A DNA stretch of 64,000 nt from a virus. Both the position numbers and the translations under genes were made by a program. Shown one piece after another: positions 4,012-50,122 of the stretch (positions are counted from its first letter, which is position 1; every line of letters begins with the position of its first letter). The notes below the pieces were generated by a model. It did not search any database. It saw only the letters and a list, made by a program, of their open reading frames with translations, and was not told the origin of the DNA. The DNA lies in the IMG/VR virus record IMGVR_UViG_3300022699_000278, positions 7,070 to 71,069 of that record; one strand, given 5' to 3'.

Positions 4012-4129
4012 ATGTCTATGCTCGTGATAGATACTAAGTCACTAACCTCAAGGTCTTCAAAGGAAGGTGTGAGCATCTCCAAAAACTTACCTTTCCCAAA
4101 TTCATTTAACTTATATTGAATGTGAAGTT

Positions 4130-4846: not shown

Positions 4847-4874
4847 AGTAATATTTCTACCTTATTTTTTAGGT

Positions 4875-7122: not shown

Positions 7123-7128
7123 ATTTCC

Positions 7129-8518: not shown

Positions 8519-8529
8519 TGTATTCTCCT

Positions 8530-9477
8530 CTATTTTAATATGTTTACCAACCACATCATAGCCTGTTCTCGATTGCCTATTTTGCTTTTTATAACTTTAA
8601 TGTGTTCCTCGTTATCTAAATATACTGCATTTTTTATGGTTTTAATCGCCGATTTAACATTCAATGCCTTGTATTTCAAAGCAGTTTTCCCTGGTATACA
8701 GTGGTCGCTGCAGCCAGCCAGTGGTGCATCCGGGTATATTACCTTACACCCGCACAGTGCAGCCTCTATCGGTGGGTTATGTAGCCCTTCCTTTGTGCTT
8801 GTGGATACCCATGTCCCTATAGTATTATACATTTTTATCAGCTGCGAGTGTGAAGGGTTTTTTATAAACAGAACGAACCTGTCGTCAACAAAACGCCATA
8901 TTTTTTTATTCAAGTCATACCCATACCCAAAGTAGTTGTATTTATCACCAAGATTTTTAATCAGCTTCATTGCAAAATCAAAGTTTTTGCGTGGCTTGGT
9001 TGAAACCAGAAAACCAAGGCTCTTCGGGTTCCTTGCACCATTGTTGCTCCACTTGTCTATATCAACACCCTGATGTGCGATAGCCGTTTTTATACCGTGA
9101 GCAAGAAACCAGTCGTACAGGTTTTCACTGTTTACTATGACGTGAACCCTTCTGGCCTTTCTCAGAATATTAGCTTTTGACATTTGATGACTTTCAAGAA
9201 GCCTACACCAATAGTAGGCCCTTGCATTTTTTGGCTTTGTTTTTAACATGGGGCCAATGTCGCTTATTGAACATGCTATGCAAACATCTGTATCCGGGGG
9301 AATTCTTTTTAATGGTGGCTTATGCTTAATCCAAGTGTGCCTATCAGAATGAGTAACAATATGCGTTCTGTGTCCAAGCTTATTCAGAGTCTGTGTACAT
9401 AATATTATAGTTCGGCTGCCGCCACACTGGTTTAATCCACCATAATATGGATGCTGTGCACAGAAAGCTATTTTCAT
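8530..9477 (-). CDS. Glycosyltransferase family 4 (GT-B)
   Basis: GGSR N-terminal motif, RKN, EGLHNPPIEAALCG. Confidence 0.85.
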   Translation of the reverse strand: MKIAFCAQHPYYGGLNQCGGSRTIILCTQTLNKLGHRTHIVTHSDRHTWIKHKPPLKRIPPDTDVCIACSISDIGPMLKTKPKNARAYYWCRLLESHQMSKANILRKARRVHVIVNSENLYDWFLAHGIKTAIAHQGVDIDKWSNNGARNPKSLGFLVSTKPRKNFDFAMKLIKNLGDKYNYFGYGYDLNKKIWRFVDDRFVLFIKNPSHSQLIKMYNTIGTWVSTSTKEGLHNPPIEAALCGCKVIYPDAPLAGCSDHCIPGKTALKYKALNVKSAIKTIKNAVYLDNEEHIKVIKSKIGNREQAMMWLVNILK

Positions 9478-10271
9478 TCAATGATCCTTCTAATTGCCTT
9501 GACAACCTTCTCAACCGGAGGATTCCATTTATGTTTATCAAGCACCTTGCATGGTGTATTAAATGGATTCCAAAGTCGTTTATACCTGTTGCGGTTAGTT
9601 CCTTTAATAATTTTCAAATACTCGTTTCCGGTAATTACTACATGGGGACATCCGCAAAGAGATGCGAGGTGCATGGGGCCGGAAGAAGTTCCAACACAAA
9701 CTTTGGCAATAATTAGGGTATTACACAATTCCTGCAATGACCTGTCCCGCAGATCAACAGTTCCTTTAACGTGATATGCCCCACTTTTAGTTCCAATAGA
9801 AGCACAATGTTTTGGATCAACACCGAGTAGCTTCATCACTTTTTCGTATCGTGCTGGTGGGAAATTCAATTTTGACTGTCTATACTTTTTCATATGTCGG
9901 GCATGAAAAACAACCTTATAGCCATACCTGTTTGTTGGCGAAGGTGCCGTCCCGTACATAACATATTCCCTCGGCCACATCATACAAACGTTACGGCGTG
10001 GTTCAATAACTTTGGCGTCCGGATACTTCCGCTTTATTTTGTCGGGCATGTGCGTCACCTTGCCATTCAGCAGCCACCGATCGGAGTCACCTTTTTTATC
10101 ATAGTGGTGTATTTTGTCAGCAAAGTCTTCGTATAAGTAGTCATTACCTGTTCTACAAACAATAACCGTTTTGCCATAGTTTCTGGAACGCTTACGTATT
10201 GCCGGTATCCATGTAGTAAGATTCCAACCAAATTCAAGCGCAGTGTCTGGTCCTGCAAGCAATTTTTTCAT
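9474..10271 (-). CDS. Glycosyltransferase family 9 (heptosyltransferase-like)
   Basis: VDLR..SLQEL, VCVGTSSGPMHLASLCGCPHVVI. Confidence 0.8.
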   Translation of the reverse strand: MKKLLAGPDTALEFGWNLTTWIPAIRKRSRNYGKTVIVCRTGNDYLYEDFADKIHHYDKKGDSDRWLLNGKVTHMPDKIKRKYPDAKVIEPRRNVCMMWPREYVMYGTAPSPTNRYGYKVVFHARHMKKYRQSKLNFPPARYEKVMKLLGVDPKHCASIGTKSGAYHVKGTVDLRDRSLQELCNTLIIAKVCVGTSSGPMHLASLCGCPHVVITGNEYLKIIKGTNRNRYKRLWNPFNTPCKVLDKHKWNPPVEKVVKAIRRIIE

Positions 10272-10301: not shown

Positions 10302-10700
10302 CTAATCGTCATTAAATCTTCTTTTGTACGATCCTCGCATTTTATACGGAAACATTTGAAATGTTACCGGGTGGTCCACCCAGCAAACACCGACGTATGC
10401 TGAGCCTTCCGGAAGGCTGTTCATCCAGTCCCTTTGATGTTTATCTAATCTTGAACATGGCATTGTATTTCCTTTTGCCTCTTTAACTTCACATGCGATA
10501 AATTTGCTGTTTCTACTAATATATCCGGTATAATCTGAAATACCATCTGACCGTTCGTAAACTACGGTTAGTTTGTTATTTATTTTTATGACCTTTGACC
10601 GTGGTTGATGTCGGAACATTGCTAAGCCGTTAGATTTGAAATACCACTCTGCAGCCTGTTCACCGGTTGTTCCATTGGATTGTTTTTTTATGGTTGTCAT
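10302..10700 (-). CDS. RecU-like Holliday junction resolvase (PD-(D/E)XK)
   Basis: SDYTG...FIACEVKE...SRLDKHQ. Confidence 0.75.
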   Translation of the reverse strand: MTTIKKQSNGTTGEQAAEWYFKSNGLAMFRHQPRSKVIKINNKLTVVYERSDGISDYTGYISRNSKFIACEVKEAKGNTMPCSRLDKHQRDWMNSLPEGSAYVGVCWVDHPVTFQMFPYKMRGSYKRRFNDD

Positions 10701-10809
10701 ATTAACAACATTTCCAATCTACAGAATTTTTATCGTTGTAGGCAATAAAATTTCGCCATTTTACTAAAACAAAAGACTGACAGACATTAAGAACAAAAGG
10801 AATTATAGT

Positions 10810-11076
10810 ATGACTGATGAACAATATTATAAAATTAAGTCCTTTGTTCTTTCTCTGTTTGAGAAAGAAGAACAGTTTTGGATTGAATCTCATAATTTTT
10901 CTGATTTATTTGACCTTTCTCACGGTTATTATCAAGAATTGATTGAACGTGTGACAAAAGAAGATCACCCCTTTTTGAATGACGCTCGTTGTAAAGACGA
11001 ATACGGCGACCCATCCGGCCAGATTCAGTTCTACCGGAAATTAGAAGAGGGTGGGAACCCTGTCCATTTACAATAG
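10810..11076 (+). CDS. Hypothetical protein, counter-oriented
   Basis: SD AAGGA; preceded by core-like GTTGTAGGCAAT at 10735; antisense to the distal part of ORF 10835-11182. Confidence 0.5.
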   Translation: MTDEQYYKIKSFVLSLFEKEEQFWIESHNFSDLFDLSHGYYQELIERVTKEDHPFLNDARCKDEYGDPSGQIQFYRKLEEGGNPVHLQ

Positions 11077-11362
11077 AATCTAAATCAAATTCAATACCAT
11101 TTAATTCAACATATACAGGAGCATCATCGTTCATAAATGTATCGAATTTATTTAATATCGATCTCAAAGTTCCATAGTTCATATAACAACTCCTAATGGC
11201 GGTACTTTCTATATGCGATCTCTGTTGACAAAAGTATTATGAACCCATTTTATCTAAAATCCAATTACCTATAATAGGTATAGCATATCCAATTGGGATA
11301 CAAATAATCATAGAAACAATAAATGGAACAAAAAACGCTATTAAATAAAGGATGATAACATT

Positions 11363-11857
11363 ATGAGTAGTAATACCCCAGAATGTGTAAATTTTCTCCC
11401 CATCATCAGCACATTTTTTGGTTCTTTCTTTGGTGTTATAATTGGTGCGATTTTGAACAATCGTTTTGTTATCAAGAGTACAGATTTGCATTTTTTTAAT
11501 ATCGCCGCTATTAAGTTTAGAAAAGAAATCCACCCTTTTTATAGTGAAGTTCGAGAAATGCTCTTGAAAGATAACAAAGGAATGATCGGCAACAATGAAA
11601 CATGGTCTTATAGAAGAATGCAACAAATCCTTCCCGAGCATAGAAAAATTATTGAAGAATTTATTTTCTCTATTCCTATTAACCATAGGCATAGCTTCGA
11701 CATAATTGCCGACACATACTGTCCCCAAAAAGAAACATATACAGAAGATGATATTAATGCGATGTATTGGTCTGGAGTTGATATGAAAGTTGAAATGTCT
11801 ATAAGAAATAAAATTAAAGAAAAAATTGAACAGATGATGAATTTTAAAATCACGTGA
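11363..11857 (+). CDS. Hypothetical protein with an N-terminal TM helix (inverted cassette)
   Basis: FLPIISTFFGSFFGVIIGAIL; AT-rich; followed by an attC-like site at 11921-12005. Confidence 0.7.
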   Translation: MSSNTPECVNFLPIISTFFGSFFGVIIGAILNNRFVIKSTDLHFFNIAAIKFRKEIHPFYSEVREMLLKDNKGMIGNNETWSYRRMQQILPEHRKIIEEFIFSIPINHRHSFDIIADTYCPQKETYTEDDINAMYWSGVDMKVEMSIRNKIKEKIEQMMNFKIT

Positions 11858-11920
11858 TCTTTTTATTTTGTTAATTCCAATGCTAATAAAGCATGACAAG
11901 AAGTAAAATGGCGAAAAATT

Positions 11921-12005
11921 ACAGCCTACAACACGCAAAGGCAGGCTCGAAGACTCGCCCAAACGCTGACGCGCTTCTGCATTTGCGGAACCGTTGTTAA
12001 GTAAT
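11921..12005 (+). repeat. attC-like hairpin, short and non-coding
   Basis: ACAGCCTACAAC-A-CGCAAAGGCAG ... CTGCATTTGCG-GAACC-GTTGTTAAGTAAT. Confidence 0.75.
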
Positions 12006-13407: not shown

Positions 13408-14001
13408 CTAAATATTTAGATTGTATCGATTAAGAATATTGTTTAACTTTGTCATAAACCCATTAAGTTTTTCTTCAATTTCGTTGAAGTTTATATCTTT
13501 TGCAAAAAACCTTTTTTCGTAATATGCAAGATCACCGGAAAGATCGGAACAATAACCGAAATAGTCCCAATATTCGCGACCGGTACAAAACAAATTCCAT
13601 TTAATTTGCCATGCATATTTTTTATCTATTTTATCTGTTAAGATAACTCGGATATGGTTATCGGGAAGTAAACATTTTATTTCGACCCCCCCGTTCTCTC
13701 CGATCAACCCGTCGGGAGAACAGCCACACATACTATATACTGGATGTTCAATGTATGCGATTTCTTTTACTGCTGTATTATGTACAATTTTATAATATTC
13801 GAGGGCCTCATTCTCCATTTCAATACCACGTTTCATTGCTTGTGTTAACGGAGTCGCCTTTCTCTGAGCCATAGCAATCTCTGATATTAATAATGCCATA
13901 AGGTTTTTTTGCGCCAACTCGGACCCCATTAAATCATCCGCACGGGTTCCGGTTATCTTCCCGAGCTTTTCCGCAAACCATTCTTCTGACCGCTGTTTCA
14001 T
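13408..14001 (-). CDS. YqaJ/lambda-type exonuclease
   Basis: QRSEEWF..KLGKITG, MKRGIEME, GCSPDGL, VEIKC. Confidence 0.92.
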   Translation of the reverse strand: MKQRSEEWFAEKLGKITGTRADDLMGSELAQKNLMALLISEIAMAQRKATPLTQAMKRGIEMENEALEYYKIVHNTAVKEIAYIEHPVYSMCGCSPDGLIGENGGVEIKCLLPDNHIRVILTDKIDKKYAWQIKWNLFCTGREYWDYFGYCSDLSGDLAYYEKRFFAKDINFNEIEEKLNGFMTKLNNILNRYNLNI

Positions 14002-14002
14002 A

Positions 14003-14563
14003 TTATGCCTCTTTCTTCTTGAGCATTCCGATCACAACAGCGGCAGCACGAAAACCAAGGTCTTCAACAGTTTCCCCCCATCCACGATTTTTGATAAAAT
14101 CGTTAATCTTTTCGGGATCAACTTTTTTTTCTGCTGAAAGGGTGTGTATTTTATTTTTTTGTTCTTCTGTTGCTGGCCTGGTTTCTGTATGCCCGTTCAA
14201 GCTACCGTCATCGTCGTAAGTGAGTACGTTGAGTATACAGCATAACGAATACCTTCGTGCATACGTCAGGGCACTTCCAAATCGTATGGCCTCTGGTTTT
14301 GGCATTAGTAGGGTTATATTTACAACAGATTCTAATTGGCTTTCGTCATCATACAGTATTGTCTTTAGAAGCTGTTGTCCATCTCCTACCGTAGGAATAT
14401 AACAAACAGAAAGCCCTAATTCTATTAGAATTGGCATTACCGCATTTGTTACATCTTCGAGGTTCGCATATTTTGATTTTGTAAATTCGTTATTGCGGGT
14501 TTTATTTACACCAGAAAAAAGCCTCTGAAATTCAGCTATTTTTGTTAACATTTTTTGATTCAT
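14003..14563 (-). CDS. ERF-family ssDNA annealing protein
   Basis: SKYANLEDV, GSALTYARRYSL, DDDG; SD GGGAGG. Confidence 0.92.
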   Translation of the reverse strand: MNQKMLTKIAEFQRLFSGVNKTRNNEFTKSKYANLEDVTNAVMPILIELGLSVCYIPTVGDGQQLLKTILYDDESQLESVVNITLLMPKPEAIRFGSALTYARRYSLCCILNVLTYDDDGSLNGHTETRPATEEQKNKIHTLSAEKKVDPEKINDFIKNRGWGETVEDLGFRAAAVVIGMLKKKEA

Positions 14564-14616
14564 TCTTACCTCCCATTCACTTTGGCATGCTTTGATTACT
14601 CTTAATGGAATCATTA

Positions 14617-15183: not shown

Positions 15184-15355
15184 ATTGCAATCAACGTTCT
15201 CAGGCGCCCGCCCGAAGTTGCTGATATACAAATTTACAAAACTGTGATAATACGCGCATGTCTCGACCATCAGCACACGTTGACTTATCTTCCACATACT
15301 TGTGAACCATTTCCTTAACGTCAGGCAATTTTGGACTGCCTGTGTTGTTAGACGT
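15184..15355 (-). repeat. attC-like hairpin C1 with a coding loop
   Basis: ACGTCTAACAAC-A-CAGGCAGTCCAAAATTGC ... GCAACTTCGGGCGGGCGCCTG-AGAAC-GTTGATTGCAAT. Confidence 0.75.
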
Positions 15356-15517
15356 AACTGGACCCACCGCAACACCATGTGAGGCCAAAATGTTATTTAA
15401 TTCCACCATAAGACCGCCGAAACGATTACGAACAACCTGCGGACGTTCTAATATTTCGAATAATGATTCACCGATGATAGAGTATGTATCAAGTAATACT
15501 TTTACTTCTTTTTTCAT
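15200..15517 (-). CDS. Hypothetical protein (cassette C1)
   Basis: SD GGAGG; contains NNTGSPK and ends LRAGA*, both encoded by attC arms. Confidence 0.65.
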   Translation of the reverse strand: MKKEVKVLLDTYSIIGESLFEILERPQVVRNRFGGLMVELNNILASHGVAVGPVTSNNTGSPKLPDVKEMVHKYVEDKSTCADGRDMRVLSQFCKFVYQQLRAGA

Positions 15518-15547
15518 GGTCGAACCTCCAATATAAAAGGGCCAGTT

Positions 15548-15576
15548 ATGTTTTACAACTACTTGCTATGCGTAAT
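15548..15576 (-). other. attI/dif-like recombination site C
   Basis: ATTACGCATAGC-AAGTA-GTTGTAAAACAT; first 21 nt differ by 1 nt from site D at 30570. Confidence 0.7.
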
Positions 15577-15598
15577 GTACAATAGTAAGTCGTTGTAT

Positions 15599-16158: not shown

Positions 16159-16950
16159 TTATTCTTTTTTCATATTTCTTAATATTTTTTCACATTTTTT
16201 TTCCAGTGCCTTTTTTTTGGCAGACGGGTTGTTATTCCAGTAATAAATTATGTCTTTCACATACCCTACATTTTTAAGTCCGGCTATTTCGATACACGGA
16301 AACATCAAGGCCATATCGCTTGCAGCTTCGAGCCATTTGCCCTTGTGCCTAAACCACTCAGGTTTTGCCATTTTTATTATCTTCCACTGAATGGTTTTCA
16401 GGTGGGAAAACCTCCATGGCATCTTTCTTATGTTCCCGGACGTGTGATGCATGCGGCTTATTTTTGTTCTGCGCCCCTTTGATCTTTTCTTATAGCTTCC
16501 ATGGGTAATCTTCCTGCCTTTTTTATAGTGGGGCACCACTTTTTTCAATGCGAGGCTGCTTATCCAGTCATCGGCATCTACTATTACTGCCACGTCCTTA
16601 TACCTTGGCCTCAATAGTTTTTCGGCCTGTTTAATGATGTTATACATATTGTGGCACAGTCCAAGCCACTTATAATTACATACTACTGTTATCCTATGAT
16701 CTTTCATTGCAGCCATTTCGGCCACCCATAGTGAGTTATCGGTAGGTTTGTCGAGGCATACAAGTGCCTTCCAGTGCGGGTATGTTTGTCGAGTAATCGA
16801 TCGCAAACACTTTTCGATTGAATTCGAGCAGTTTCTGCCACGTATCAAGAATATAAACGTTAACAGCTTTTTACGTGTCGTCTCACCCTTCTGAGCATGC
16901 TGCGTATTTTCGCGTTTTTCGTAGTCATCAAGGTGGATATCTTCTGCCAT
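16159..16950 (-). CDS. Glycosyltransferase family 2 (true start uncertain)
   Basis: IEKCLRSITRQTYPHW, LDKPTD, VIVDADDW, ASD. Confidence 0.85.
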   Translation of the reverse strand: MAEDIHLDDYEKRENTQHAQKGETTRKKLLTFIFLIRGRNCSNSIEKCLRSITRQTYPHWKALVCLDKPTDNSLWVAEMAAMKDHRITVVCNYKWLGLCHNMYNIIKQAEKLLRPRYKDVAVIVDADDWISSLALKKVVPHYKKGRKITHGSYKKRSKGRRTKISRMHHTSGNIRKMPWRFSHLKTIQWKIIKMAKPEWFRHKGKWLEAASDMALMFPCIEIAGLKNVGYVKDIIYYWNNNPSAKKKALEKKCEKILRNMKKE

Positions 16951-28058: not shown

Positions 28059-29782
28059 ATATTTTTGATCAATATCTATCCTATGGGTTATCTGTAATTC
28101 CCTGTAATGACAAGAAACCGGCCATAAGCGGATGGAAACAGTTTCAGGCTACTCCACCTACCCCTGAACAAGCAAAAGCCTTTAATGGCCATCAAATCGC
28201 GTGTATTTGCGGATATGTATCGGGCGGCTTAATCTGTCTCGATTTCGATATAAAAAATGGGAACAAATATGATGACTGGATTTTGCTGGTAAATAATACG
28301 AAACCTGAAATACTCAGTGATATAGTATGTGAGAAGTCTCCGAGCGGTGGGTACCATATAATTTTCAGATCCAATAAAAAAATTCCGAACTTAAAGCTCG
28401 CTATAAATAAAACAGGGCAATGCACAATAGAAACCAGGGGAGAGGGTGGATATTTTATTTCATACCCTTCACCAAATTATCATCTGGAATTTGGTGATTT
28501 TGGGAAAATAAAAAAACTATCCGACGAAGATACAGAGCTACTCATAAACTGTGCAAAGGCGCAAACGGAAAAAAGTGAAGACGTCATTGTCACTCAAACA
28601 CAAACGATTTCAACAGGTTTATCACCCTTTGATGATTACGATTCAAGGGAAACACCAACATCGATTCTCGAAAACCACGGGTGGAGTACTGTAGCAAAAC
28701 GTGGAGAAACCATTTATCTATGTCGGCCAGGAAAAGATAAAAAGAATATTAGTGCATCATGGAATAATGTACCGGGCAGATTTTATTGTTTCTCGACATC
28801 AACGATATTCAAAAACAATACATCGTACAAGCCAAGCGCCGTATACTCCATTCTTGAACACAATGGAGATTTTTCTGCAGCTGCAAAAGAACTAATATCC
28901 AGGGGATACGGAAGCAAAACAGAAAAAAAGGTAACTGCTAAAATAATAAATCCATCAAATATCAGAAATAAAATATTTGACATAAAACAGTATGGGTATA
29001 AAAGAGGTAGAACAACAGGATGGCCAACACTCGACAAACTGTACTCAGTAACAAAAAGGCAGTTTACAGTTATTACCGGCGTTCCGTCTTCCGGTAAAAG
29101 TGAGTTCATGGATGCACTTGCAATAAATTTAATGATTAAGGAAGGGTGGAAGTTTGCTGTATTTTCCCCGGAAAACTACCCGGAAGAAATGCATTATCAC
29201 AAACTAATTGAAAAAATATGCGGGGATGAACTGCGGAATATACCAGATGAAAATATTGAAGTTGCCATAAAAACAATTGGAGAACACTTCTTTTTTATTG
29301 ACGCACTCGAAAGAGACATTGACTTAGATAGTATTCTGCAGCAAACAGAAGCGTTGATTGAAAAGAAAAAGGTTGACGCCCTTATAATAGACCCATGGAA
29401 CGAAATAGAATTATCTCGACCAACCAATGTAAATGATTCAGATTTTATCGGAAACTGTCTAAGAACATGCAGAAAGTTTGCCAGAAAATTTAACATTCAT
29501 TTATTTATCATTGCACATCCGACAAAATTGCAAAAAGGCAAAGACGGCAAATATCCAATACCTGAACTATGGGATATCGCCGGAACTGCTCACTGGAGAA
29601 ATAAAGCCGATAACGGAATTTGCATTCACCGAGACTTTGAAGAAGATAGAACGTACATCTATGTTCAAAAAATAAAATTTAAATATTGCGGACGGCAAGG
29701 GGAAACATGGTTTACATATGAAGAAAAAAGTGGTAGGTATATTGATGGTGGCGGAACTGTTTCTGATCACTGGTCTGGTTGA
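28055..29782 (+). CDS. Bifunctional Prim-Pol fused to a DnaB/Twinkle-like SF4 helicase
   Basis: GLSVIPC..KKPA, CLDFD, SPSGGYH, IETRGEGGY; TGVPSSGKS, IIDPWN, AHPTK. Confidence 0.92.
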   Translation: MNIFDQYLSYGLSVIPCNDKKPAISGWKQFQATPPTPEQAKAFNGHQIACICGYVSGGLICLDFDIKNGNKYDDWILLVNNTKPEILSDIVCEKSPSGGYHIIFRSNKKIPNLKLAINKTGQCTIETRGEGGYFISYPSPNYHLEFGDFGKIKKLSDEDTELLINCAKAQTEKSEDVIVTQTQTISTGLSPFDDYDSRETPTSILENHGWSTVAKRGETIYLCRPGKDKKNISASWNNVPGRFYCFSTSTIFKNNTSYKPSAVYSILEHNGDFSAAAKELISRGYGSKTEKKVTAKIINPSNIRNKIFDIKQYGYKRGRTTGWPTLDKLYSVTKRQFTVITGVPSSGKSEFMDALAINLMIKEGWKFAVFSPENYPEEMHYHKLIEKICGDELRNIPDENIEVAIKTIGEHFFFIDALERDIDLDSILQQTEALIEKKKVDALIIDPWNEIELSRPTNVNDSDFIGNCLRTCRKFARKFNIHLFIIAHPTKLQKGKDGKYPIPELWDIAGTAHWRNKADNGICIHRDFEEDRTYIYVQKIKFKYCGRQGETWFTYEEKSGRYIDGGGTVSDHWSG

Positions 29783-29994
29783 TAAAATTATTATAATTCT
29801 GAAGGTAATAACAAGAATGGTAACCAAAAAAGAAGCACAATGGTAGAGTTAGCTGATATTTTAAGCAAGGCTGAACACCTTAAAAAGAGAGATTACTCTG
29901 TGTATAATTCGTTAAAGCAGGAAATAAGCAAAATGAATTTACCGGCAGATAGTTACGAATATGCAATAATGAAACTTTCTGAAATATTGGAGGT

Positions 29995-30198
29995 GTGATG
30001 AATAAAACAAACATCTTAGATTTCCCGGAAAAAACCGACTGGCTTCCGATTGTATCCGATTACGTCGTTACCTACAGGGATGGCGACAATTTCAAGGCTG
30101 TCAAACTCACCGCAGAGTCAATTGCGGAAATACCGGAAATGTTTTATTCGTTAGAAAAGACCTGTAAAAATATTATTTCGATTGTTTTGGTGAAATAG
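29995..30198 (+). CDS. Hypothetical protein
   Basis: SD GGAGG. Confidence 0.55.
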   Translation: MMNKTNILDFPEKTDWLPIVSDYVVTYRDGDNFKAVKLTAESIAEIPEMFYSLEKTCKNIISIVLVK

Positions 30199-30248
30199 GC
30201 TGCATTGTCGGGAATTATGTGTTATATTACTTATCATGATAGGGATAA

Positions 30249-30512
30249 TTGAAATTTATAAATGTGAATGCGATAAATGCGGTCACGAGTGGACATCCAG
30301 ATCGGGAAAAATCCCGGTCGCGTGTCCGGTGTGTAAATCGAGAAAATGGAACGAATTATCAAAAGGTTCTACTCGCAAGAAACAGAATAAAGTTGCAGCA
30401 TAAAACGTATCTGTATGAAGGTATGAAAAATATTATTCTAGCAAATGATTTTACCGTATCGCAATTCATGTTCGGGTGCACTGCGATGGCAATTGAAGCA
30501 ATGAATAAATGA
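30249..30512 (+). CDS. Hypothetical protein
   Basis: ORF co-oriented with the replication operon. Confidence 0.45.
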   Translation: MKFINVNAINAVTSGHPDREKSRSRVRCVNRENGTNYQKVLLARNRIKLQHKTYLYEGMKNIILANDFTVSQFMFGCTAMAIEAMNK

Positions 30513-30569
30513 CATCTCGAATACATTACCAACAAGGACAGGTTGATTTTATTTAACTTACGCAGGGCC

Positions 30570-30598
30570 ATTGCGCATAGCAAGTAGTTGGCCAAAAT
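30570..30598 (+). other. attI/dif-like recombination site D
   Basis: ATTGCGCATAGC-AAGTA-GTTGGCCAAAAT; heads the largest array. Confidence 0.7.
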
Positions 30599-30644
30599 AA
30601 ACCGCGCTGAGATTGTAGTTCGGCGCATACAGAACGGAGCGTTT

Positions 30645-30830
30645 ATGTCTGAATTACAGTTTCACAAGTGCGGCGAAGATATGGTACGTATCGGAAATTA
30701 TACATATTTCAACAAGCATCTCGAAAGTAAGCAGCCATCAAACGTTGTAGGGTTACAGCGGTACAATCGTCGAACAGAACAGTACGAAACATACAACCCA
30801 CATACGGAAGGGCCGTGCGCCGAAAGATAA
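30645..30830 (+). CDS. Hypothetical protein (cassette D1)
   Basis: SD GGAG; bounded by complementary cassette ends. Confidence 0.55.
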   Translation: MSELQFHKCGEDMVRIGNYTYFNKHLESKQPSNVVGLQRYNRRTEQYETYNPHTEGPCAER

Positions 30831-30940
30831 TTATGATGCGCGGTTTACATCGGCTAACAGGCCAAGGCGTACATGCCCAAAGCTGCACGCCCGCCGTTGG
30901 CCAACCCGTTGTACGCAATTAAGCCGGAGAGCAATATTAT

Positions 30941-31564
30941 ATGTGCGCCCGTAAATACAACATCATCTATGCAGACCCGCCGTGGAACGGATTGGGTTGG
31001 AATAATGGTTCAGGCAAAAAGTGTCCAGCTAACCATTACGCAGTGCAAGATATCGCGTGGATAAAATCTCTGCCGGTTTCAGAATTGGCCCAAGACACCA
31101 GCGCACTTTTCTTGTGGGTAACTTTTCCGAATCTAACAGGCGGGCTTGCTGTTATGGAGTCTTGGGGTTTTAAGTACGCAACGTGCGCTTTTACGTGGGT
31201 CAAGCGTAATCGATGTTCAGATGGTCGGTTTATGGGTTGTGGTAACTATACAAGGGCCAATTCTGAACTGTGCTTGCTTGGCACTCGTGGGAGTTGTCAG
31301 TCTTTGCGGAAGTCTCGTTCGGTTCGTCAGATTTGTGATGCTCCGGTTGGTAAACACAGCGAAAAACCGGCAGAGATACGCGACCGCATTGTGCAGCTTT
31401 TTGGCGATTTGCCGAGGGTAGAACTTTTTGCCAGAACAATCACGGCGGGTTGGGATGTGTGGGGTAACGAAGTTTCATCATCAATAGAGCTGGGCGCACA
31501 GAACACTATGGAATCCGGCTCAACAGCGTATAACACAGGTTGGGTGCAATGCCGCCCTTTTTGA
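30941..31564 (+). CDS. MT-A70 family adenine methyltransferase (cassette D2)
   Basis: YNIIYADPPW, LFLWVT, FTWVK, GNYTRANSELCL, HSEKP, VELFAR, GWDVWGNE. Confidence 0.93.
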   Translation: MCARKYNIIYADPPWNGLGWNNGSGKKCPANHYAVQDIAWIKSLPVSELAQDTSALFLWVTFPNLTGGLAVMESWGFKYATCAFTWVKRNRCSDGRFMGCGNYTRANSELCLLGTRGSCQSLRKSRSVRQICDAPVGKHSEKPAEIRDRIVQLFGDLPRVELFARTITAGWDVWGNEVSSSIELGAQNTMESGSTAYNTGWVQCRPF

Positions 31565-31581
31565 GATTATAGGAGCGCCGA

Positions 31582-31899
31582 ATGAAAGTAACTCTTGAGT
31601 ATTTACGTAAGGTCTGTAATCAAATGGCAGAAGCGAAGGTGGCACCTTTGCCGGTGTACATTGCCATTATTGGTGACAAAAAGTACATGTGTCCAGTGTC
31701 GTCGTTGCCGGAAGGTCTTGCCCCGTTACCGTGCGAGATCGTCGGCGCTCAGTTTTCTGAGGAAGCGGGCGGCACAGACACACAACACTGCCATGTTGCA
31801 AGCTCCGAGGGAGACATTTGCCCTAATTGCGGTGCCGGAAATACATGGAACAAACGTTACGGCAGACACTTGTGTGGTACGTGTGAATACGAATGGTGA
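31582..31899 (+). CDS. Hypothetical protein with a C-terminal Zn ribbon (cassette D3)
   Basis: SD AGGAG; CPNC...CGTC lies in the attC loop. Confidence 0.65.
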   Translation: MKVTLEYLRKVCNQMAEAKVAPLPVYIAIIGDKKYMCPVSSLPEGLAPLPCEIVGAQFSEEAGGTDTQHCHVASSEGDICPNCGAGNTWNKRYGRHLCGTCEYEW

Positions 31900-31960
31900 T
31901 CGGGCAAACGTCAACATGCCTGAGAGTGTTGGTAAAATATAATTTTCTATTGGAGATTAT

Positions 31961-32212
31961 ATGAGCAACAAATGTAATATATATCTTGCTAAAAGTGTTT
32001 CTATAACTCAAATAGACTCTCCTTCGTGTAAAGAGTTTTTACTGGTGGTAGAAAAATTACAGCCTGTAACACAGGTTAAATGCTCCACTGGCGCTACGGT
32101 GGTACAAATTTGCCCTTCATGTGAAGGTACTGGTAATCTATATCCGATAAAGTTAGAAAAACCAATCGTTTGTTCACGCTGTAAGGGTACGGGCAAACTT
32201 CTTTTAACCTAA
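31961..32212 (+). CDS. Hypothetical protein with a DnaJ-type CxxCxGxG finger (cassette D4)
   Basis: CPSCEGTG...CSRCKGTG encoded in the attC loop. Confidence 0.65.
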   Translation: MSNKCNIYLAKSVSITQIDSPSCKEFLLVVEKLQPVTQVKCSTGATVVQICPSCEGTGNLYPIKLEKPIVCSRCKGTGKLLLT

Positions 32213-32257
32213 ACCGTTATAGACAATAGTCTTCTTAAATTTATTATAGGCAGTGCT

Positions 32258-32671
32258 ATGAAACAAGCTTTTGAAAAGTACCAAAATGAATGCATGTTTT
32301 ACAAATTGGTTGCAAATATGTTTCAAATAGTTGCAAATAACCGTCTTTCATGTCAAGATATTTTGAGTGCTGCAATGCTGGCTGTGCTATTTTACGAACG
32401 TGATGTTCGCACCGCGGAATTTGTAGGGACTCAGCCTGCCGCCAATAACGGAGGTTATGTGCGCGGCTATAAAGCGATTAGTTTTGATGATTTTGTGAAG
32501 ATTCGTGATTGTCAAGGTACGAAAATGTATGATGGTTCTAATGCGATTATTTGCAAGCCACGCCTTGGCGGTAGGTGGTTTTGTGATTTTACAAGCTGTT
32601 CTATTTGGCGAAAGTTGGGGCGGCGCGCTGATATTAAGGTGGTAAAAATTTCATCGCACAACAAGTGCTAA
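32258..32671 (+). CDS. Hypothetical protein spanning two cassette units (D5)
   Basis: Reads through the AAC-GGAG-GTT junction at 32447-32456. Confidence 0.55.
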   Translation: MKQAFEKYQNECMFYKLVANMFQIVANNRLSCQDILSAAMLAVLFYERDVRTAEFVGTQPAANNGGYVRGYKAISFDDFVKIRDCQGTKMYDGSNAIICKPRLGGRWFCDFTSCSIWRKLGRRADIKVVKISSHNKC

Positions 32672-32733
32672 AAGTAAGGGCTAAAGCCACATTGCGGAGC
32701 AACGTCTTTTAGCACTGCTCCGTTGGTGTAAAT
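32651..32733 (+). repeat. attC-like hairpin, short
   Basis: CATCGCACAAC-A-AGTGCTAAAAG ... CTTTTAGCACT-GCTCC-GTTGGTGTAAAT; 11-bp perfect arms. Confidence 0.8.
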
Positions 32734-32780
32734 AGCGTTTGCCTTTATATTATAGGCGGCGCACAAAGAAAGGATTTATC

Positions 32781-32936
32781 ATGATAGAGAAAATTGGCAA
32801 TGTCAAATGTTCGCGTTGTGGTCGGGAGTGGACTGCTGCGTGCGAGTCTATTGAAACCAAGTCTGTTGAATGTCCTGACTGTGGGTTTATGCAGCCAATA
32901 TCCTCAAATGACATAACTGGCCGGGACGTTGTGTGA
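32781..32936 (+). CDS. Small Zn-ribbon protein
   Basis: CSRC...CPDC; SD AAGGA. Confidence 0.6.
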   Translation: MIEKIGNVKCSRCGREWTAACESIETKSVECPDCGFMQPISSNDITGRDVV

Positions 32937-32971
32937 AATATCATTGACTCTTTATGATCCCGATGAGAGAA

Positions 32972-33002
32972 AACCCCGACCCTTGTGGTCGGGGTAGTTG
33001 AC
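32972..33002 (-). mobile_element. Solitary IS200/IS605-family terminal hairpin
   Basis: Minus strand GTCAACTACCCCGACCACAAGGGTCGGGGTT, typical GTCAACTACCCC...GGGG end; no tnpA, tnpB or iscB nearby. Confidence 0.6.
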
Positions 33003-33080
33003 AGACGTTTCTAGTAGTATGAGTTGGGACAAGGAACGCTAAGGTGATTTCCAGAGTTGTAATTCGAACGGCTGATAAAA

Positions 33081-33542
33081 ATGGTAACATTCGTACGTGA
33101 TAATCTGATTAATATGAACGTTGATGCCGTAGCAATAATGGGAACCTGCTGCGGACAGGCCGAAAAAGGCATGCAGCAGCGGTTCTATGAGATGTATCCG
33201 TACTACAAAGATTATTACCAGATGACTTGTAACCAGAAACTCGTTCAGCACAAAAAATGCTTGGCGTTTTGGGCCAAGGACATTTACGGCATAGATATTA
33301 TCACAATGCCGATAAAGCGGAAGCGGTGTACAATGTTTTACTGGAAGAACGTGGTGAAAACATTGGAAAATCTACGAGAAACCATGGTGTTTAACAGATA
33401 TCAAAGCATATCTGTCCAAGCCGTAGCCTACAACACCACTCATTGGAATAAAATCAGAAAAACTTATCTTGATCTGGATATCGATAGAATGAATATTAAA
33501 GTAGTTTTTCCAAAATCGGCGAACAAGAAATTTCTAAGGTAG
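33081..33542 (+). CDS. Divergent macrodomain-like protein
   Basis: VTFVRDNLI..DAV...CCGQAEKGMQQRFYEMYP, IITMPIK...W, SISVQA; Poa1p/DarG-like layout. Confidence 0.55.
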   Translation: MVTFVRDNLINMNVDAVAIMGTCCGQAEKGMQQRFYEMYPYYKDYYQMTCNQKLVQHKKCLAFWAKDIYGIDIITMPIKRKRCTMFYWKNVVKTLENLRETMVFNRYQSISVQAVAYNTTHWNKIRKTYLDLDIDRMNIKVVFPKSANKKFLR

Positions 33543-46123: not shown

Positions 46124-49100
46124 CTATTGTCCTAGCATTACTACTCCGTCGGGTAATGTTGCGTGTCCGGATGTCACCCAGAACTCACTTTCACTTGCAC
46201 CAGCATTTGCTTGTGTTGTCCCTTCTTTAAGATTATACCCATATAGCCCCCCGTCTGATGCAATCGAAAAGGCATTGCTTCCCGTTGTGGTAGTGTTGGT
46301 GGCACCAACATAAAAATTATGTCTGGTAACGGTGTTTTTACTAAATAGTCCACCTCCATAGTTGGCTGTATTGGAAGTATCGGTGCTGTTCAGCACAAGT
46401 ACGGAAATATCTTCTTCGTCAGTGTCGTAATGAGGGAAGTCTATTTTCGCTGCTTTAATAGTATTATCGGTCCTGGTGTCGCCACCATTGTCTGCCCCAA
46501 GGATAATTGCATCACTATTTAGTATATCAAGATAATTACATTTTATTGTATCGTCAAACGTACCGCTTCCTGCAACGTGTAGCTTTGTATCAGGACTATC
46601 AGTCCCGATACCTACATCTCCTCCATCGTTATACAACGGACTGTCATCCCACGAAGTTGCTCCGTCAGCATACGGTATATACCCTGTTGTAACACCATGA
46701 GCAGCAGACGCACCACCTATGTCACTCAGCACCTCTGCTCCTGTACGGAAATCCACGTTATCCGATGCATCGAGCACCAGAAACTTATCCGTATCGGTTC
46801 CTGCGTTAGCACAGGTAGTTATATTAAGCGTACCGTCTGATGCTATCTCTAACTTGGCCGTACCGTTTGTGCGAAATTGCATGGCATTATCTGAGTGATC
46901 GTATCGTATATACCCGACATCCGCTGACTCTGGATCACCGAAGAATATATATTGACGTTGGGTATTCGGTGTTAAGAACTGTAGTCCCGTATGAGTGTTA
47001 TCCTCAATAACCGATAATGCATCACTATGCGATGTAGCTCCACTGTTACCAGCATAAACGTGTAGCTTTGTATCAGGACTATCAGTCCCGATACCTACAT
47101 TGCCATCTTGACCTATTCTAAGTCTTTCGACTAAGCTCTCTTCATTTTCATCATACGTTTTAAATGCCAGAACCCCAAGTGGAGGGTCTCCTGTACCTTC
47201 TGGATAAAAGACTAACGATTCAATCGTTGAAAGTACATATATGTTTCCATATTTAGCCTGTTGCTCAAATTCTATTCCAACACCTGACTCTGATCCTGCC
47301 TCTTCTGTCGTCTCATGTGTTATCCTAAGTGGATATGTTACATCGTTTACGACATTGTCCTCTACGCTTACATGTAATTTATTATCCGGACTAGCTGTCC
47401 CGATACCTACATCTCCTCCATCGTTATACAGCGGACTGTCATCCCACGAAGTTGCTCCGTCAGCATACGGTATATACCCTGTTGTAACGCCGTGAGCAGC
47501 AGACGCACCACCAATGTCACTCAGTACCTCTGCCCCTGTACGGAAATCCACGTTATCCGATGCATCAAGTACCAGAAACTTATCCGTATCGGTTCCGGCG
47601 TTAGCACAGGTGGCAATATTAAGCGTACCGTCTGATGCTATCTCTAGCTTGGCCGTACCGTTTGTGCGAAATTGCATGGCATTATCTGAGTGATCATATC
47701 GTATATACCCGATTTCCGCCGACTCTGGATCACCGAAGAATATATATTGACGGTTGGTATTCGGTGTTAAAAACTGTAGTCCCGTATGAGTGTTATTTTC
47801 GATAGTTACTAATGCGTCGCTATGTGATGCTGCCCCACTGTTAGCTTCGTAAATATGCAATAGATCGTCAGGACTAGCTGTCCCGATGCCAACATTGCCA
47901 GAGCTATCTATACGCATTGCTTCAACACCATCATCTGAATGTATTACAAATTCTCCGCCTGAAATCGATGTTCCTAAAACAAATTCTAAATCAGTATAAT
48001 CCCATCTTAAAAAAGATGCATAAGCATCTGAAGGTGTTCCAAAAACAAATCTTCCTTCGGATGCATCGGGACATATTATACTCATACCTGTATTGGCACC
48101 ATTTTCAATTATCAATTCGTCAGCATTGCCATTAGCAACAACCGCACCTGCAGAACCATTATAAACATGTAATTTACCGTCAGGACTATCTGTCCCTATG
48201 CCAACATCTCCTCCATCGTTATACAACGGACTGTCATCCCACGAAGTTGCTCCATCTGCATACGGTATATACCCTGTTGTAACACCATGAGCAGCAGACG
48301 CACCACCTATGTCACTCAGCACCTCTGCCCCTGTACGGTGATCCACGTTATCCGATGCATCTAGCACCAGAAACTTATCCGTATCGGTTCCGGCGTTAGC
48401 ACAGGTGGCAATATTAAGGTTGCCACCTGTAAAACAATGATTACCAGCGCCTACCTCCTGAGAATTATATATAAGGTCAGAACCATCGGCATATATTTTC
48501 GCCATCTGATCGTCACCGAAAACCACACCATAAGAATCGGTATCAAAATACAGGTCGTGTATTAATAATGAAGGGGCGGCATGTTCCGAATAAATACACC
48601 AGTCACTTGTAACACTTCCGCCGGTAGAAATATCTTCGATCTTCAAGTCAGCATACCAGTCTTCTGTTGCTGCCTGTCTGTAATGTCGGATAGTAATACC
48701 GGTTAACTCGTTCCATGTCCCGGCTTCGTCTAAATCTCCTGTGTAAGCACAGATTCCCATTCCGTTAGAAACCGTCCCGACATCATCAAGAAGCGCCGCT
48801 CCGTTAATACCTTGACATGTGCCGGTATTGGTAACCCCGGCATCAGGCTTTGCTCGTGCATACCCGTAAAACCCGATACAAGAATGGTCTCCGTTGACAG
48901 AAGATGAACTAATAGGCAACCCATATAAACCGTAATTTTGCTCATTTGTCGTTGAATTATATACACTTAATTTTCCGGGAGAGGTAGGCGTATATGGTCC
49001 TATGCCAACATTGTTGTCAGAATCAATAATTATACCGTTGTTTCCAAGCGATGTGCCGGATCGTATATTAAATTTATCGCTGTTGCTGTTATCTATACCA

Positions 49101-50122
49101 ATAGCATAAGACTGTCCGCCGGTAAGAGTAAAAGTCTGAGATGCGTCTCCGGTACCATCCTGTTGTATTTGAGCCATAGATGTAGTCGAAGCGTCATCAC
49201 GATAAAGTTTTAATATTGTAGTTGCATCGGGTGCAATTCCCAAACCAAGGCTTGTCGCCTGCATAGTGCCTATATTGGTAAGATTTTGTGCATTCCAACT
49301 AAATGCACCGGCAGCATCACCGGAAACATCTGCAAGCAGATCAGCTCCGGTGCGGTAATCAATAATGCCCCCGGCATCCCGAACAAGAAACGCATTAACA
49401 TCCGCACCGGCATCGGCACAAACATCAAGATAAACGCTGCTGTTCAAGTCTATCTGGGTGTCCGCTTCAAGATCAAGGTGCCCGTCATTTAAAGATGCCA
49501 TGTATATAGCATTGTCCCTGAACTGCAGCTGCATGTCATCGTTCAATAACAGGCCGGTGTCTGGAATGTGGGTAAGTGTAACATCCTGATCATCACCGAG
49601 ATACATAACCCCGCCATCAGCAAGATACAAATCAGAAAATTCCAGCGCCGCCGTCCCGAGTGAAGCACCATCTGCAGCTGTTGGGGTAAAATCTGTAACC
49701 GCCTGAAAATGATCTGTGGTAAGTGTATTGGTAGTATCATTGTACGTGAAATCAGCTTCAGCACCCATTATTCCACCATCATTGTACTGTACCTGTGTGT
49801 CGGCTCCTGCTGCAGCTGCAGCCCCTGGAGCAACCCATCCAAGATTCCCGTCTCCATCTGTATAAAGAATTTCGTTTGCGGCTCCATCTGCAGCCGGAAG
49901 CTGCCATTGAGAGTCAATAAGCATACTTAAACTTTCATCCCATACAAGCAGCTGGTTGTCAGTCGGCTGAGTAATAGAAGCCTTTGCGGTTCCCAGACGT
50001 CTCAAAGACACGGCAACCTCATCCATTAGCTTTTCAAGGCCACGAACAACGTTCGTTAAATCCCGTGAGTTGTTTATTATGCTTTTAGCCATATTAATAC
50101 ATAGCACACGTTGAATTACCAT
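46124..50122 (-). CDS. Tail fibre/receptor-binding protein with internal duplications
   Basis: GNVGIGT(D/A)SP repeats, LYTDGDGNLGW, GADTQVQYNDGG; three near-identical DNA repeats. Confidence 0.85.
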   Translation of the reverse strand: MVIQRVLCINMAKSIINNSRDLTNVVRGLEKLMDEVAVSLRRLGTAKASITQPTDNQLLVWDESLSMLIDSQWQLPAADGAANEILYTDGDGNLGWVAPGAAAAAGADTQVQYNDGGIMGAEADFTYNDTTNTLTTDHFQAVTDFTPTAADGASLGTAALEFSDLYLADGGVMYLGDDQDVTLTHIPDTGLLLNDDMQLQFRDNAIYMASLNDGHLDLEADTQIDLNSSVYLDVCADAGADVNAFLVRDAGGIIDYRTGADLLADVSGDAAGAFSWNAQNLTNIGTMQATSLGLGIAPDATTILKLYRDDASTTSMAQIQQDGTGDASQTFTLTGGQSYAIGIDNSNSDKFNIRSGTSLGNNGIIIDSDNNVGIGPYTPTSPGKLSVYNSTTNEQNYGLYGLPISSSSVNGDHSCIGFYGYARAKPDAGVTNTGTCQGINGAALLDDVGTVSNGMGICAYTGDLDEAGTWNELTGITIRHYRQAATEDWYADLKIEDISTGGSVTSDWCIYSEHAAPSLLIHDLYFDTDSYGVVFGDDQMAKIYADGSDLIYNSQEVGAGNHCFTGGNLNIATCANAGTDTDKFLVLDASDNVDHRTGAEVLSDIGGASAAHGVTTGYIPYADGATSWDDSPLYNDGGDVGIGTDSPDGKLHVYNGSAGAVVANGNADELIIENGANTGMSIICPDASEGRFVFGTPSDAYASFLRWDYTDLEFVLGTSISGGEFVIHSDDGVEAMRIDSSGNVGIGTASPDDLLHIYEANSGAASHSDALVTIENNTHTGLQFLTPNTNRQYIFFGDPESAEIGYIRYDHSDNAMQFRTNGTAKLEIASDGTLNIATCANAGTDTDKFLVLDASDNVDFRTGAEVLSDIGGASAAHGVTTGYIPYADGATSWDDSPLYNDGGDVGIGTASPDNKLHVSVEDNVVNDVTYPLRITHETTEEAGSESGVGIEFEQQAKYGNIYVLSTIESLVFYPEGTGDPPLGVLAFKTYDENEESLVERLRIGQDGNVGIGTDSPDTKLHVYAGNSGATSHSDALSVIEDNTHTGLQFLTPNTQRQYIFFGDPESADVGYIRYDHSDNAMQFRTNGTAKLEIASDGTLNITTCANAGTDTDKFLVLDASDNVDFRTGAEVLSDIGGASAAHGVTTGYIPYADGATSWDDSPLYNDGGDVGIGTDSPDTKLHVAGSGTFDDTIKCNYLDILNSDAIILGADNGGDTRTDNTIKAAKIDFPHYDTDEEDISVLVLNSTDTSNTANYGGGLFSKNTVTRHNFYVGATNTTTTGSNAFSIASDGGLYGYNLKEGTTQANAGASESEFWVTSGHATLPDGVVMLGQ

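Follow-up and report, generated by a model that had tools for sequence, protein, structure and literature searches.

A 64,000-nucleotide (nt) stretch of viral DNA, hereafter the window (bases 7070–71069 of the 71,069-base IMG/VR virus record IMGVR_UViG_3300022699_000278; completeness estimate 93%), carries four arrays, A to D, of small gene units whose two ends are complementary to each other. This end pairing is real and highly non-random. At least 12 other contigs hold a further 50 or so units of the same architecture, and homology between contigs starts or stops at the GTT that opens the units. On balance, and with slightly more confidence than doubt, we read the units as integron-like mobile phage gene cassettes with a split, extended recombination site, which would serve as a folded single-stranded DNA substrate for an Xer/IntI-like enzyme; we infer the acting single strand, the enzyme and the excised circle from sequence comparison.

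The window holds six units, three of them in array D. Read in gene direction, D1, D2, D3, A1 and B1 start with GTTG and end with CAAC (the D1 end listed below reads TAAC), and D1, D2, D3 and A1 each form three stems (S1, S2 and S3) of 7–10 bp. The complementary strings listed for these four units in an initial annotation, made from the letters alone, were all found in place. The units, their stems and two further unit-like starts are as follows.

30587–30858, plus strand: unit D1, with a 61-amino-acid open reading frame (ORF) at 30645–30830 that has no Pfam family.
30587–30593 with 30852–30858, plus strand: D1 S1, GTTGGCC with GGCTAAC.
30598–30607 with 30838–30847, plus strand: D1 S2, TAAACCGCGC with GCGCGGTTTA.
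30619–30627 with 30816–30824, plus strand: D1 S3, TTCGGCGCA with TGCGCCGAA.
30908–31534, plus strand: unit D2, with an MT-A70 DNA methyltransferase ORF at 30941–31564 that extends 30 nt beyond the unit end.
30908–30916 with 31526–31534, plus strand: D2 S1, GTTGTACGC with GCGTATAAC.
30922–30928 with 31514–31520, plus strand: D2 S2, AGCCGGA with TCCGGCT.
30942–30950 with 31492–31500, plus strand: D2 S3, TGTGCGCCC with GGGCGCACA.
31539–31786, plus strand: unit D3, with an ORF at 31582–31899 that crosses the 3' arm into the next piece.
31539–31546 with 31779–31786, plus strand: D3 S1, with one mismatch.
31550–31557 with 31767–31774, plus strand: D3 S2, TGCCGCCC with GGGCGGCA.
31573–31581 with 31742–31750, plus strand: D3 S3, GAGCGCCGA with TCGGCGCTC.
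1396–1606, minus strand (read from 1606 to 1396): unit A1, three stems, with an ORF at 1264–1548 that crosses CAAC into the next piece.
10735–11932, plus strand: unit B1, with an S1 of 9 bp and an S2 of 18 bp around an AA/CA bubble.
15344–15559, minus strand: unit C1, two weak stems.
31928–32260, plus strand: region with two 5'-arm-like starts seen by eye, GTTGGTA-AAAT.. at 31928 and GTTATAGAC-AAT.. at 32215.

The cargo of B1 is 1.2 kb long and AT-rich, with two plus-strand ORFs, and is oriented opposite to the neighbouring genes. The two starts at 31928 and 32215 precede ORFs at 31961–32212 and 32258–32671, and a similar 5' arm occurs in another array locus (L013); inspection by eye revealed no matching 3' arm for either, and they look like degenerate units.

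To quantify the pairing, the duplex energy of the 50-nt ends was calculated with DNA parameters and compared with 1000 dinucleotide shuffles of both arms. For D1, D2, D3, A1 and B1, the observed energy was reached by 0/1000 shuffles (z-scores −5.4 to −12.9), which places the pairing above the dinucleotide-shuffled background. The suggestion that B1 and C1 follow the same pattern holds for B1, given its stems of 9 and 18 bp and 0/1000 shuffles, and only weakly for C1 (29/1000 shuffles, z −2.3). Among the 3481 GTT...AAC-anchored pairs in the window, four have energies of −45 kcal/mol or lower, namely A1, D1, D2 and D3, and no anchored pair does so in eight block-wise dinucleotide shuffles of the window. 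Non-cassette genes do not share this property: the flanks of 68 non-cassette ORFs pair with a mean of −11.7 kcal/mol (standard deviation (s.d.) 3.4), and one of the 68 reaches −25 kcal/mol despite longer control windows, the control being limited to such genes because it misplaces the arms of cassette ORFs, which read through. In DNA folds of whole units, S1, S2 and S3 are present in both the minimum free energy (MFE) and centroid structures; the z-scores of whole units reach only −1.7 to −2.0, since any sequence of 250 nt attains nearly the same overall stability. Duplex energies replaced a 7-mer seed-chaining search for long-range inverted repeats, which was dropped as AT-rich chance chains in shuffles scored equally.

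The architecture is shared well beyond the window. A 19-base head motif of the piece following A1 and C1 was found in 11 IMG/VR contigs and two contigs of a genome collection, and scanning these loci with the end-pairing test yielded arrays of like-built units. We curated 48 units from 10 sources (six from the window and 42 from nine other loci) and aligned each 5' arm with the reverse complement of its own 3' arm. Along the arms, the order is S1, a 2×2 AA/CA bubble, S2, a loop of roughly 13×13 nt, S3 and the start codon. S1 consists of GTTG, three to five variable bases and a closing G (36/48) or C (44/48), with position 4 being G in 36 units and A in 12; S2 spans 8–12 bp; and S3 comprises 7–12 G+C-rich bp that often include the Shine-Dalgarno (SD) sequence. 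The 13-nt loop is conserved on the 5' arm (near ..TTGA(A/G)ATTATAGG) and also on the 3' arm, where it is unlike its 5' counterpart (near ..AGAACACTAAGGA(A/G)). In the bubble after S1, AA always faces CA. The initial annotation had described this feature as an unpaired AAT opposite ACA(T/G)C; across the family it is instead a 2×2 internal loop of AA facing CA, closed by a conserved G–C pair. Variable positions are the paired ones, and conserved positions are those that are unpaired and differ between the arms.

Cognate arms pair with a mean energy of −49.4 kcal/mol (s.d. 7.6, n = 48), a value inflated by the choice of curated units by pairing energy, against −25.2 kcal/mol (s.d. 6.6) for the 2256 non-cognate combinations of 5' and 3' arms. 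Because the cognate energies lie far below the non-cognate ones, the pairing is unit-specific, and the proposal that every unit keeps its own pairing although its sequence differs is confirmed. An independent search anchored on S2 and the bubble found 56 pairs, in which the first 8 nt paired with the last 8 at 8/8 positions in 27, 7/8 in 22, 6/8 in 6 and 5/8 in 1; this search fixed four of the eight S1 positions and is otherwise free of the energy-selection bias. All units are co-oriented with their ORFs, some are nearly empty (146–163 nt long), and the carrier phages span G+C contents from 0.30 to 0.55.

Other motifs were less productive as search handles. A 14-mer of the 3' loop hit 118 loci, 117 of them new, with convincing arrays only in L169 and L265; three further loci each had a single pair near the −38 threshold and were taken for chance. 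The tail motif gave 42 matches in bacterial and archaeal genomes, with the full architecture only in L025 and L055, and the remainder, rich in G+C, were attributed to chance, their number being close to the expectation for an 18-mer. No bacterial reservoir of arrays was found by this search, which used the tail motif only.

Breakpoints between related loci were located by all-against-all comparison and inspection of match ends. Loci L006 and L009 share one unit and its following piece at 98.9% identity, which begins at the G of GTTG, and in L055 a 314-nt GTT-to-GTT unit occurs twice, 99.7% identical, with different flanks on both sides. Two other locus pairs lose their likeness after GTTGT and GTTGGT, and in one pair only the three variable S1 bases differ, a second breakpoint lying between S1 and the bubble. 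Overall, the breakpoints in four pairs fall at GTT or 1–5 nt away (G|TT and |GTT are not separable), and the inspected junctions show no target-site duplication. With contig-to-contig homology beginning or ending at GTT, the units have the behaviour of mobile cassettes, and the initial assignment of cassette junctions to GTT agrees with both the breakpoints and the duplicated 314-nt unit.

Arms, pieces and cargo were also found in new combinations. The D2 3' arm recurs in L008 up to CAAC-A and is followed there by a different, full hairpin piece. Contigs from two freshwater-sediment runs (X1/X2) contain D2 from 30907, D3 from 31539 to 31777 and then another tail, the D1 hairpin piece in a different neighbourhood, and the D1 5' arm combined with different S1 boxes and different cargo. 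Two units of L005 (5302 and 7602) have three identical stems and different ORFs; D2 and L009 5603 differ in their arms and enclose homologous MT-A70 genes; and D2 and L006 966 have S2 and S3 in common, S1 not, with MT-A70 versus Mom as cargo. These breakpoints and reassortments are characteristic of site-specific cassette exchange at or beside GTTG, and two strand-exchange points, staggered relative to each other, would account for the two classes of breakpoint on either side of the variable S1 bases.

The CAAC of one unit and the next GTTG are separated by a piece that is bounded by its own inverted repeat and ends in (G/A)(G/A)AC(C) right before that GTTG. The gap measures 44–75 nt in 15/21 cases, 4 nt between D2 and D3, and 113–397 nt where the piece holds an insert; some pieces are empty and others filled. 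The inserts continue the reading frame of the upstream ORF and are in many cases rich in Cys. The pieces and array leaders of the window are listed below.

30859–30907, plus strand: piece H, which follows D1 and forms a short local hairpin from GGCCAA..TTGGCC and GGCGT..ACGCC (z −0.9).
31535–31538, plus strand: D2/D3 junction, the four bases ACAG.
31787–31927, plus strand: piece after D3, a coding insert within an inverted repeat of its own, with the following GTTG at 31928.
1260–1395, minus strand: piece with insert after A1, ACAGGCAGCCCAAAA..(variable)..CTTCGGGCGGGTGCCTGA (z −2.6).
11933–11992, plus strand: piece after B1, a hairpin; the next GTTG is at 11993.
15343 down to 15200, minus strand: insert-bearing piece after C1, like the piece after A1.
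30573–30586, plus strand: leader of array D, ..GCGCATAGCAAGTA, before the first cassette.
1607–1630 and 15560–15585, minus strand: leaders of arrays A and C, before the first GTTG.

We joined the junction pieces (3' arm, piece and 5' arm) at G|TT into in silico circles and folded both strands in comparison with shuffles. A single rod is predicted on either strand for D1 (z −3.2/−4.4), D2 (−4.6/−4.5) and D3 (−2.3/−3.6), the dumbbell geometry that the initial annotation had anticipated for circles closed at G|TT; for a cassette of L055 the values are only −1.6/−2.2. Its picture of cargo in both loops of the rod applies after A1, C1 and D3, where the piece contains an insert, and fails for D1 and B1, where the piece is a short hairpin, and for D2, where it is 4 nt.

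The insert after D3 forms the Cys-rich, zinc-ribbon-like tail of the D3 ORF. The head (ACAGGCAGCCCAAAA) and tail (CTTCGGGCGGGTGCCTGA) of the insert module are conserved at the nucleotide level (1260–1395 and 15200–15343 in the window; L005–L015, L025 and L055), and its translation reads ..NTGSPK.., about 35 variable, often Cys-rich residues and ..QLRAGA-stop. By eye, changes in its inner stem are compensated between contigs (TTGCCGAC/GTCGGCAA, TTGCTCGC/GCGAGCAA and TGTCCACA/TGTGGACA). The hairpin piece after D1 contains a perfect 10-base palindrome, GTTGGCCAAC, at 30897–30906; its first 9 bases equal the first 9 of D1 and provide, in the MFE fold, an alternative partner for the D1 3' box.

Of 10 array starts examined, 9 have a (C/T)ATAAC-like box, 3–5 nt and TA directly ahead of the first GTTG; within the window this holds for arrays A, C and D, with B as the exception. 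The leader may serve as a −10 promoter element from which transcription starts at GTTG, as an attI-like partner site, or in both roles. The box is also seen in L005, L010, L013, L025, L055 and L265, which belong to unrelated phages, and in L013 the leader is preceded by a short GTTATAC..GTATAAC hairpin resembling an empty unit. A leader 16-mer was tried as a search handle and returned only 3 contigs, as chance matches.

An integron attC site is a local imperfect hairpin of roughly 57–141 nt with outer and inner boxes and short unpaired spacers, and the integron integrase gene is divergent from its array. As in integrons, the units form co-oriented, mostly promoterless ORF arrays behind one leader, with junctions at GTT; a cassette opens with bases that can pair with the box before its 3' hairpin; structure rather than sequence is what the site conserves, and unpaired positions would give polarity; the distance from CAAC to the next GTT, mostly 44–75 nt, lies with the two boxes added within the attC size range; and the presumed enzyme is related to IntI/Xer. 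Unlike in integrons, the complementarity here covers about 45 nt of the cassette on each side of the ORF (S2, the conserved 13×13 loop and S3), the crossover would lie in mid-site, and by eye the piece after CAAC has no GTT-like inner box at 5 nt. The integron consensus GTTRRRY is exact in 5/48 units and RYYYAAC in 4/48, no IntI is present, and the recombinase gene is co-directional with the array in the three contigs described below. Because no integron integrase was found in the phage and few units have the exact consensus boxes, we keep the units outside the integron family and file them as an integron-type cassette variant.

Xer-dependent elements offer a second comparison. In pdif modules, genes are bracketed by inverted XerC/D sites, and at CTX-type attP sites Xer acts on a folded single strand with a central bubble. 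Those sites have a conserved 28 bp that is bound as such, whereas only the GTTG/CAAC tips and the bubbles are conserved here.

The nearest phage-borne systems are those of Qi et al. (2023; PMC9892861), who describe integrase-less attC clusters (CALINs) with methyltransferase cargo in virulent phages; five of the six phage attC sites tested there recombine with IntI1, a precedent that speaks for the integron-like reading. CALINs are alike in being phage-borne, integrase-less arrays with methyltransferase cargo and GTT-type boxes at the array boundary. A CALIN is defined by at least two predicted attC sites in a row and no integrase nearby; array D has three full units and arrays A, B and C one each, and no integrase was found in the phage. 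Phage TJE1, with canonical attC cassettes, is alike in its annotated ERF, exonuclease, methylase and glycosyltransferase genes; it differs in that its three cassettes pair only over an 8-bp box, with canonical short sites and a GTT-like inner box by eye. Under the same parameters, the TJE1 arms have energies of −19.7, −10.6 and −23.4 kcal/mol, against −47 to −52 kcal/mol for A1 and D1–D3. The complementarity of the window units does extend beyond a box of 7–8 bp, as first claimed, and because the TJE1 arms are weak, the extended split site is not general to phage-borne cassettes. The literature yielded nothing closer than PMC9892861 and a paper on the PeSL elements of T4-type phages (PMC2839356), although a description in other journals is possible.

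Under the integron-like reading, a cassette would run from one GTT(G) to the next, and the recombination site would be a long imperfect palindrome made up of S3, the large loop, S2, the AA/CA bubble, S1 (GTTG and N4–5 paired with N4–5 and CAAC) and the terminal hairpin piece. Crossover would occur at GTTG or immediately beside it, a central position in the palindrome rather than an edge, so that integration would put one half of the site before the ORF and the other half, with the hairpin piece, behind it. Because a crossover in mid-palindrome splits the site around the ORF, the ends of every integrated unit would be complementary. The site would work as folded single-stranded DNA whose stems need only pair and would therefore be free to drift and covary, and the unpaired bubbles would hold the conserved arm-specific sequence that gives polarity. 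The enzyme would be a small Xer/IntI-like tyrosine recombinase, encoded in some phages directly before the array. Because no recombinase was found in the window phage, any movement of its four arrays would depend on an enzyme supplied in trans, or the arrays would be immobile at present.

A different view of the same events is possible, and we hold it tentatively: the units may belong to a phage-own cassette-capture system distinct from integrons, with an Xer-like recombinase head-to-tail with the array and a bipartite paired-end single-stranded site, moving anti-restriction genes among unrelated phages. A folded cassette would then present both crossover points together and allow excision without a second hairpin, and the AA/CA bubble and the large asymmetric loop would be the polarity marks for the recombinase.

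In phage record G001 (locus L005), a tyrosine recombinase gene with the same orientation as the array stops 7 nt ahead of the first GTTG, and homologues of its protein are likewise placed, also on the same strand, in L013 (42% identity, 37 nt) and L025 (29%, 16 nt). The three array-adjacent proteins are 268–298 amino acids long, and the NCBIfam models that fit them best, archaeal XerA type and integron integrase, both score below their cut-offs. They score 114–149 bits with the integron integrase model TIGR02249 (cut-off 265); because this model matched in two stretches, they appear to lack the middle segment specific to the integron-integrase family. From these sequences, a small recombinase of the Xer/IntI-like tyrosine type is the likely cassette enzyme.

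Several observations weigh against the integron-like reading. The window phage gave no match at E ≤ 1 to the models for tyrosine recombinases (PF00589), serine recombinases (PF00239), the IS200-type HUH transposase (PF01797) or the integron integrase (TIGR02249), and its arrays are regarded as integrase-less. Of the five other array-bearing phage records, only G001 encodes a tyrosine recombinase; no recombinase gene was found in the fetched flanks of 12 further array loci, and the six phage genomes do not all share any protein family. Identity among the three array-adjacent recombinases is 29–44%, and a quick tree with 75 relatives joined two as sisters (support 100) and gave the third no firm placement; the three may nevertheless have one origin. 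Among the loci of 80 metagenome relatives of the recombinase (29–39% identity), at most one family-like unit and no array was found, and profile scans for more array-linked recombinases led to 4 and 5 viral loci with no new array. The adjacency could thus reflect where temperate phages keep accessory genes. Local hairpins do form after CAAC, yet in three of the four window cases they are no more stable than shuffles (z −0.9, −0.7 and −0.6 after D1, B1 and D3). The ORF crosses the 3' arm past CAAC in 38/48 units, in a preferred frame, so the arm is partly coding (the terminal AAC is read as a codon in 23 of these 38). The contigs of two DNA runs (5% of sampled words, assembled contigs only) contained no circle, empty site or joint. 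To these is added the energy-based choice of the curated units already mentioned.

RNA-selected structure normally tolerates many G·U pairs, and on the transcribed strand only. In the stems of the 48 units, runs of at least five positions contain 1149 Watson–Crick pairs and 20 isolated mismatches; 5 would be G·T in the sense strand and another 5 in the antisense strand, and the other 10 are transversions. The more stable strand is the sense strand in 19 units and the antisense strand in 29. Because the stems are nearly pure Watson–Crick and without strand bias, DNA is favoured over mRNA; the result fits pairing that acts in DNA, or arms that were copied from one another, and is the strongest point against a role in mRNA.

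These counts bear directly on an explanation that we consider unlikely, in which the stems act in mRNA, the 5' leader of a gene pairing with the end of that gene's reading frame. The effect would be protection of both ends, long-range RNase III-type processing (S1 and S2 together give about 20 bp), or concealment of the SD sequence in S3 until a ribosome arriving from upstream opens the arm, which would couple translation along the array. It would account for S3 containing or abutting the SD sequence or ATG in many units, for upstream ORFs that end in the inter-unit piece or the next 5' arm (the 38/48 that pass CAAC), for the common orientation of units and ORFs, and for a −10-like box 5–7 nt before the first GTTG, which would make GTTG the transcript start. 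It is at odds with the 5 sense G·U against 1149 Watson–Crick pairs, with an equal number on the antisense strand, and with the equally good folding of both strands; cleavage in S1 and S2 would cut most ORFs before their stop codon, and the GTT breakpoints and the duplicated GTT-to-GTT unit would be left unexplained. Nor is there an Rfam family match: Rfam 15 gave none at gathering score over the whole window, and at E up to 5 only chance-level matches in 30400–32400 and 1000–1750, a weak test because a covariance model is unable to bridge an ORF-sized insert. As to the earlier idea that the stem could hide the SD sequence in mRNA, S3 does overlap it in many units, but the scarcity of G·U pairs and the equal folding of both strands argue against selection on RNA. 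S3 may have a secondary effect on translation.

Somewhat more doubtful still is the possibility that the arms are linkers for homologous or single-strand-annealing recombination between co-infecting phages, a role proposed for the promoter-stem-loop (PeSL) cassettes of T4-type phages, their symmetry being the by-product of a regulatory hairpin with genes in its loop. The enzymes for such a process are encoded beside arrays B and C.

10302–10700, minus strand: RecU-like resolvase gene, directly adjoining unit B1.
13408–14614, minus strand: YqaJ exonuclease and ERF annealase pair, downstream of array C.

The occurrence of the same arms with different cargo (L005 5302/7602, the D1 5' arm in X1/X2, and D2/L006 966) and of inter-unit pieces both empty and filled would likewise suit linkers. 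PeSL cassettes of T4-type phages are said to give mini-circles. They are small structured intergenic modules in hyperplastic phage regions with modular, PeSL-mediated shuffling (PMC2839356), which are points of likeness. PeSL elements are repeated promoter and terminator hairpins between genes, whereas here each gene lies within its own complementary pair and the units have neither T-runs nor a repeat common to all. Self-comparison of our loci found no shared intergenic repeat such as defines PeSL. Against linkers stand the several breakpoints exactly at GTT, where the shared sequence is only 4–7 nt, and the lack of any homologue of ERF, YqaJ and RecU in G003, an array-bearing relative of the window phage (23–85% protein identity over about 35 genes). 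Linkers also need not keep the flanks of one gene complementary yet unlike those of other units.

That the units are small transposons, akin to miniature inverted-repeat transposable elements, with terminal inverted repeats bound as double-stranded DNA by a transposase acting in trans, is very improbable: inverted ends of about 45 nt, the invariant tips GTT...AAC and the near-empty units of 146–163 nt would fit, but conserved positions differ between the arms and variable ones are complementary, where terminal inverted repeats have the same contact positions in both, no target-site duplication occurs at the inspected junctions, the tested families (PF01797) and Pfam scans of 40 phage ORFs yielded no DDE/HUH transposase, and the units stand head to tail in arrays behind one leader.

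The cargo also speaks for the integron-like reading. All eight other large cassettes that were scanned encode DNA modification enzymes (N6/N4, four C5, MT-A70, Dam and Mom); with D2 (MT-A70), 9/9 large cargos are DNA-modification enzymes, either methyltransferases or Mom. The small cassette ORFs have no Pfam family. The cargo consists mostly of anti-restriction DNA-modification enzymes and small proteins without known family. As a side observation, the Mom cassette of L006 (886–1563, minus strand) and D2 compare at 626 and 627 nt, with related S2 and S3 and one S2 position changed on both arms.

Integron-type cassettes are the best-known route of single-gene trade among bacteria. To our knowledge, how a gene becomes joined to its recombination site is an open question for integron cassettes. 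The present family differs in that its site is divided between the two sides of the gene, has three stems and keeps its shape among environmental phages that are not related, with DNA-modification enzymes that defeat restriction as the main identifiable cargo. If the proposed mechanism is true, phages would own a modular exchange system for counter-defence genes, and the arrays would provide a second, independently readable structure-specific single-stranded recombination site. Its sequence grammar (GTTG, AA/CA bubble, paired arms and CAAC) could then be used to find mobile accessory genes in viral metagenomes, and the small cassette ORFs would be candidates for new anti-defence proteins.

In its remaining gene content, the window encodes large and small terminase subunits and a primase-helicase (Pfam scans), and glycosyl- and methyl-transferase genes are numerous. 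The regions 204–10271 and 16159–16950 hold an unusually rich set of glycosyltransferase, methyltransferase, radical-SAM and nucleotidyl-transferase genes; the annotated repertoire of TJE1 resembles the glycosyltransferase/methyltransferase/radical-SAM set of the window, and includes ERF and exonuclease as well. The window contains no tRNA gene. The deposited-phage collection held no near or distant DNA match to 29500–33500, and the primase-helicase, used as a handle, led to no related locus. Apart from G003, the other four of the five compared array-bearing phage records share almost nothing with the window phage. An ORF of 1332 amino acids (46124–50122, minus strand) contains three internal repeats at 46575–48418, of about 240–530 nt and 88–94% identical, which probably represent a repetitive domain in a tail or fibre protein. 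At the right end of both window and record, 63785–64000 holds a direct repeat in tandem (108 nt, 91% identical).

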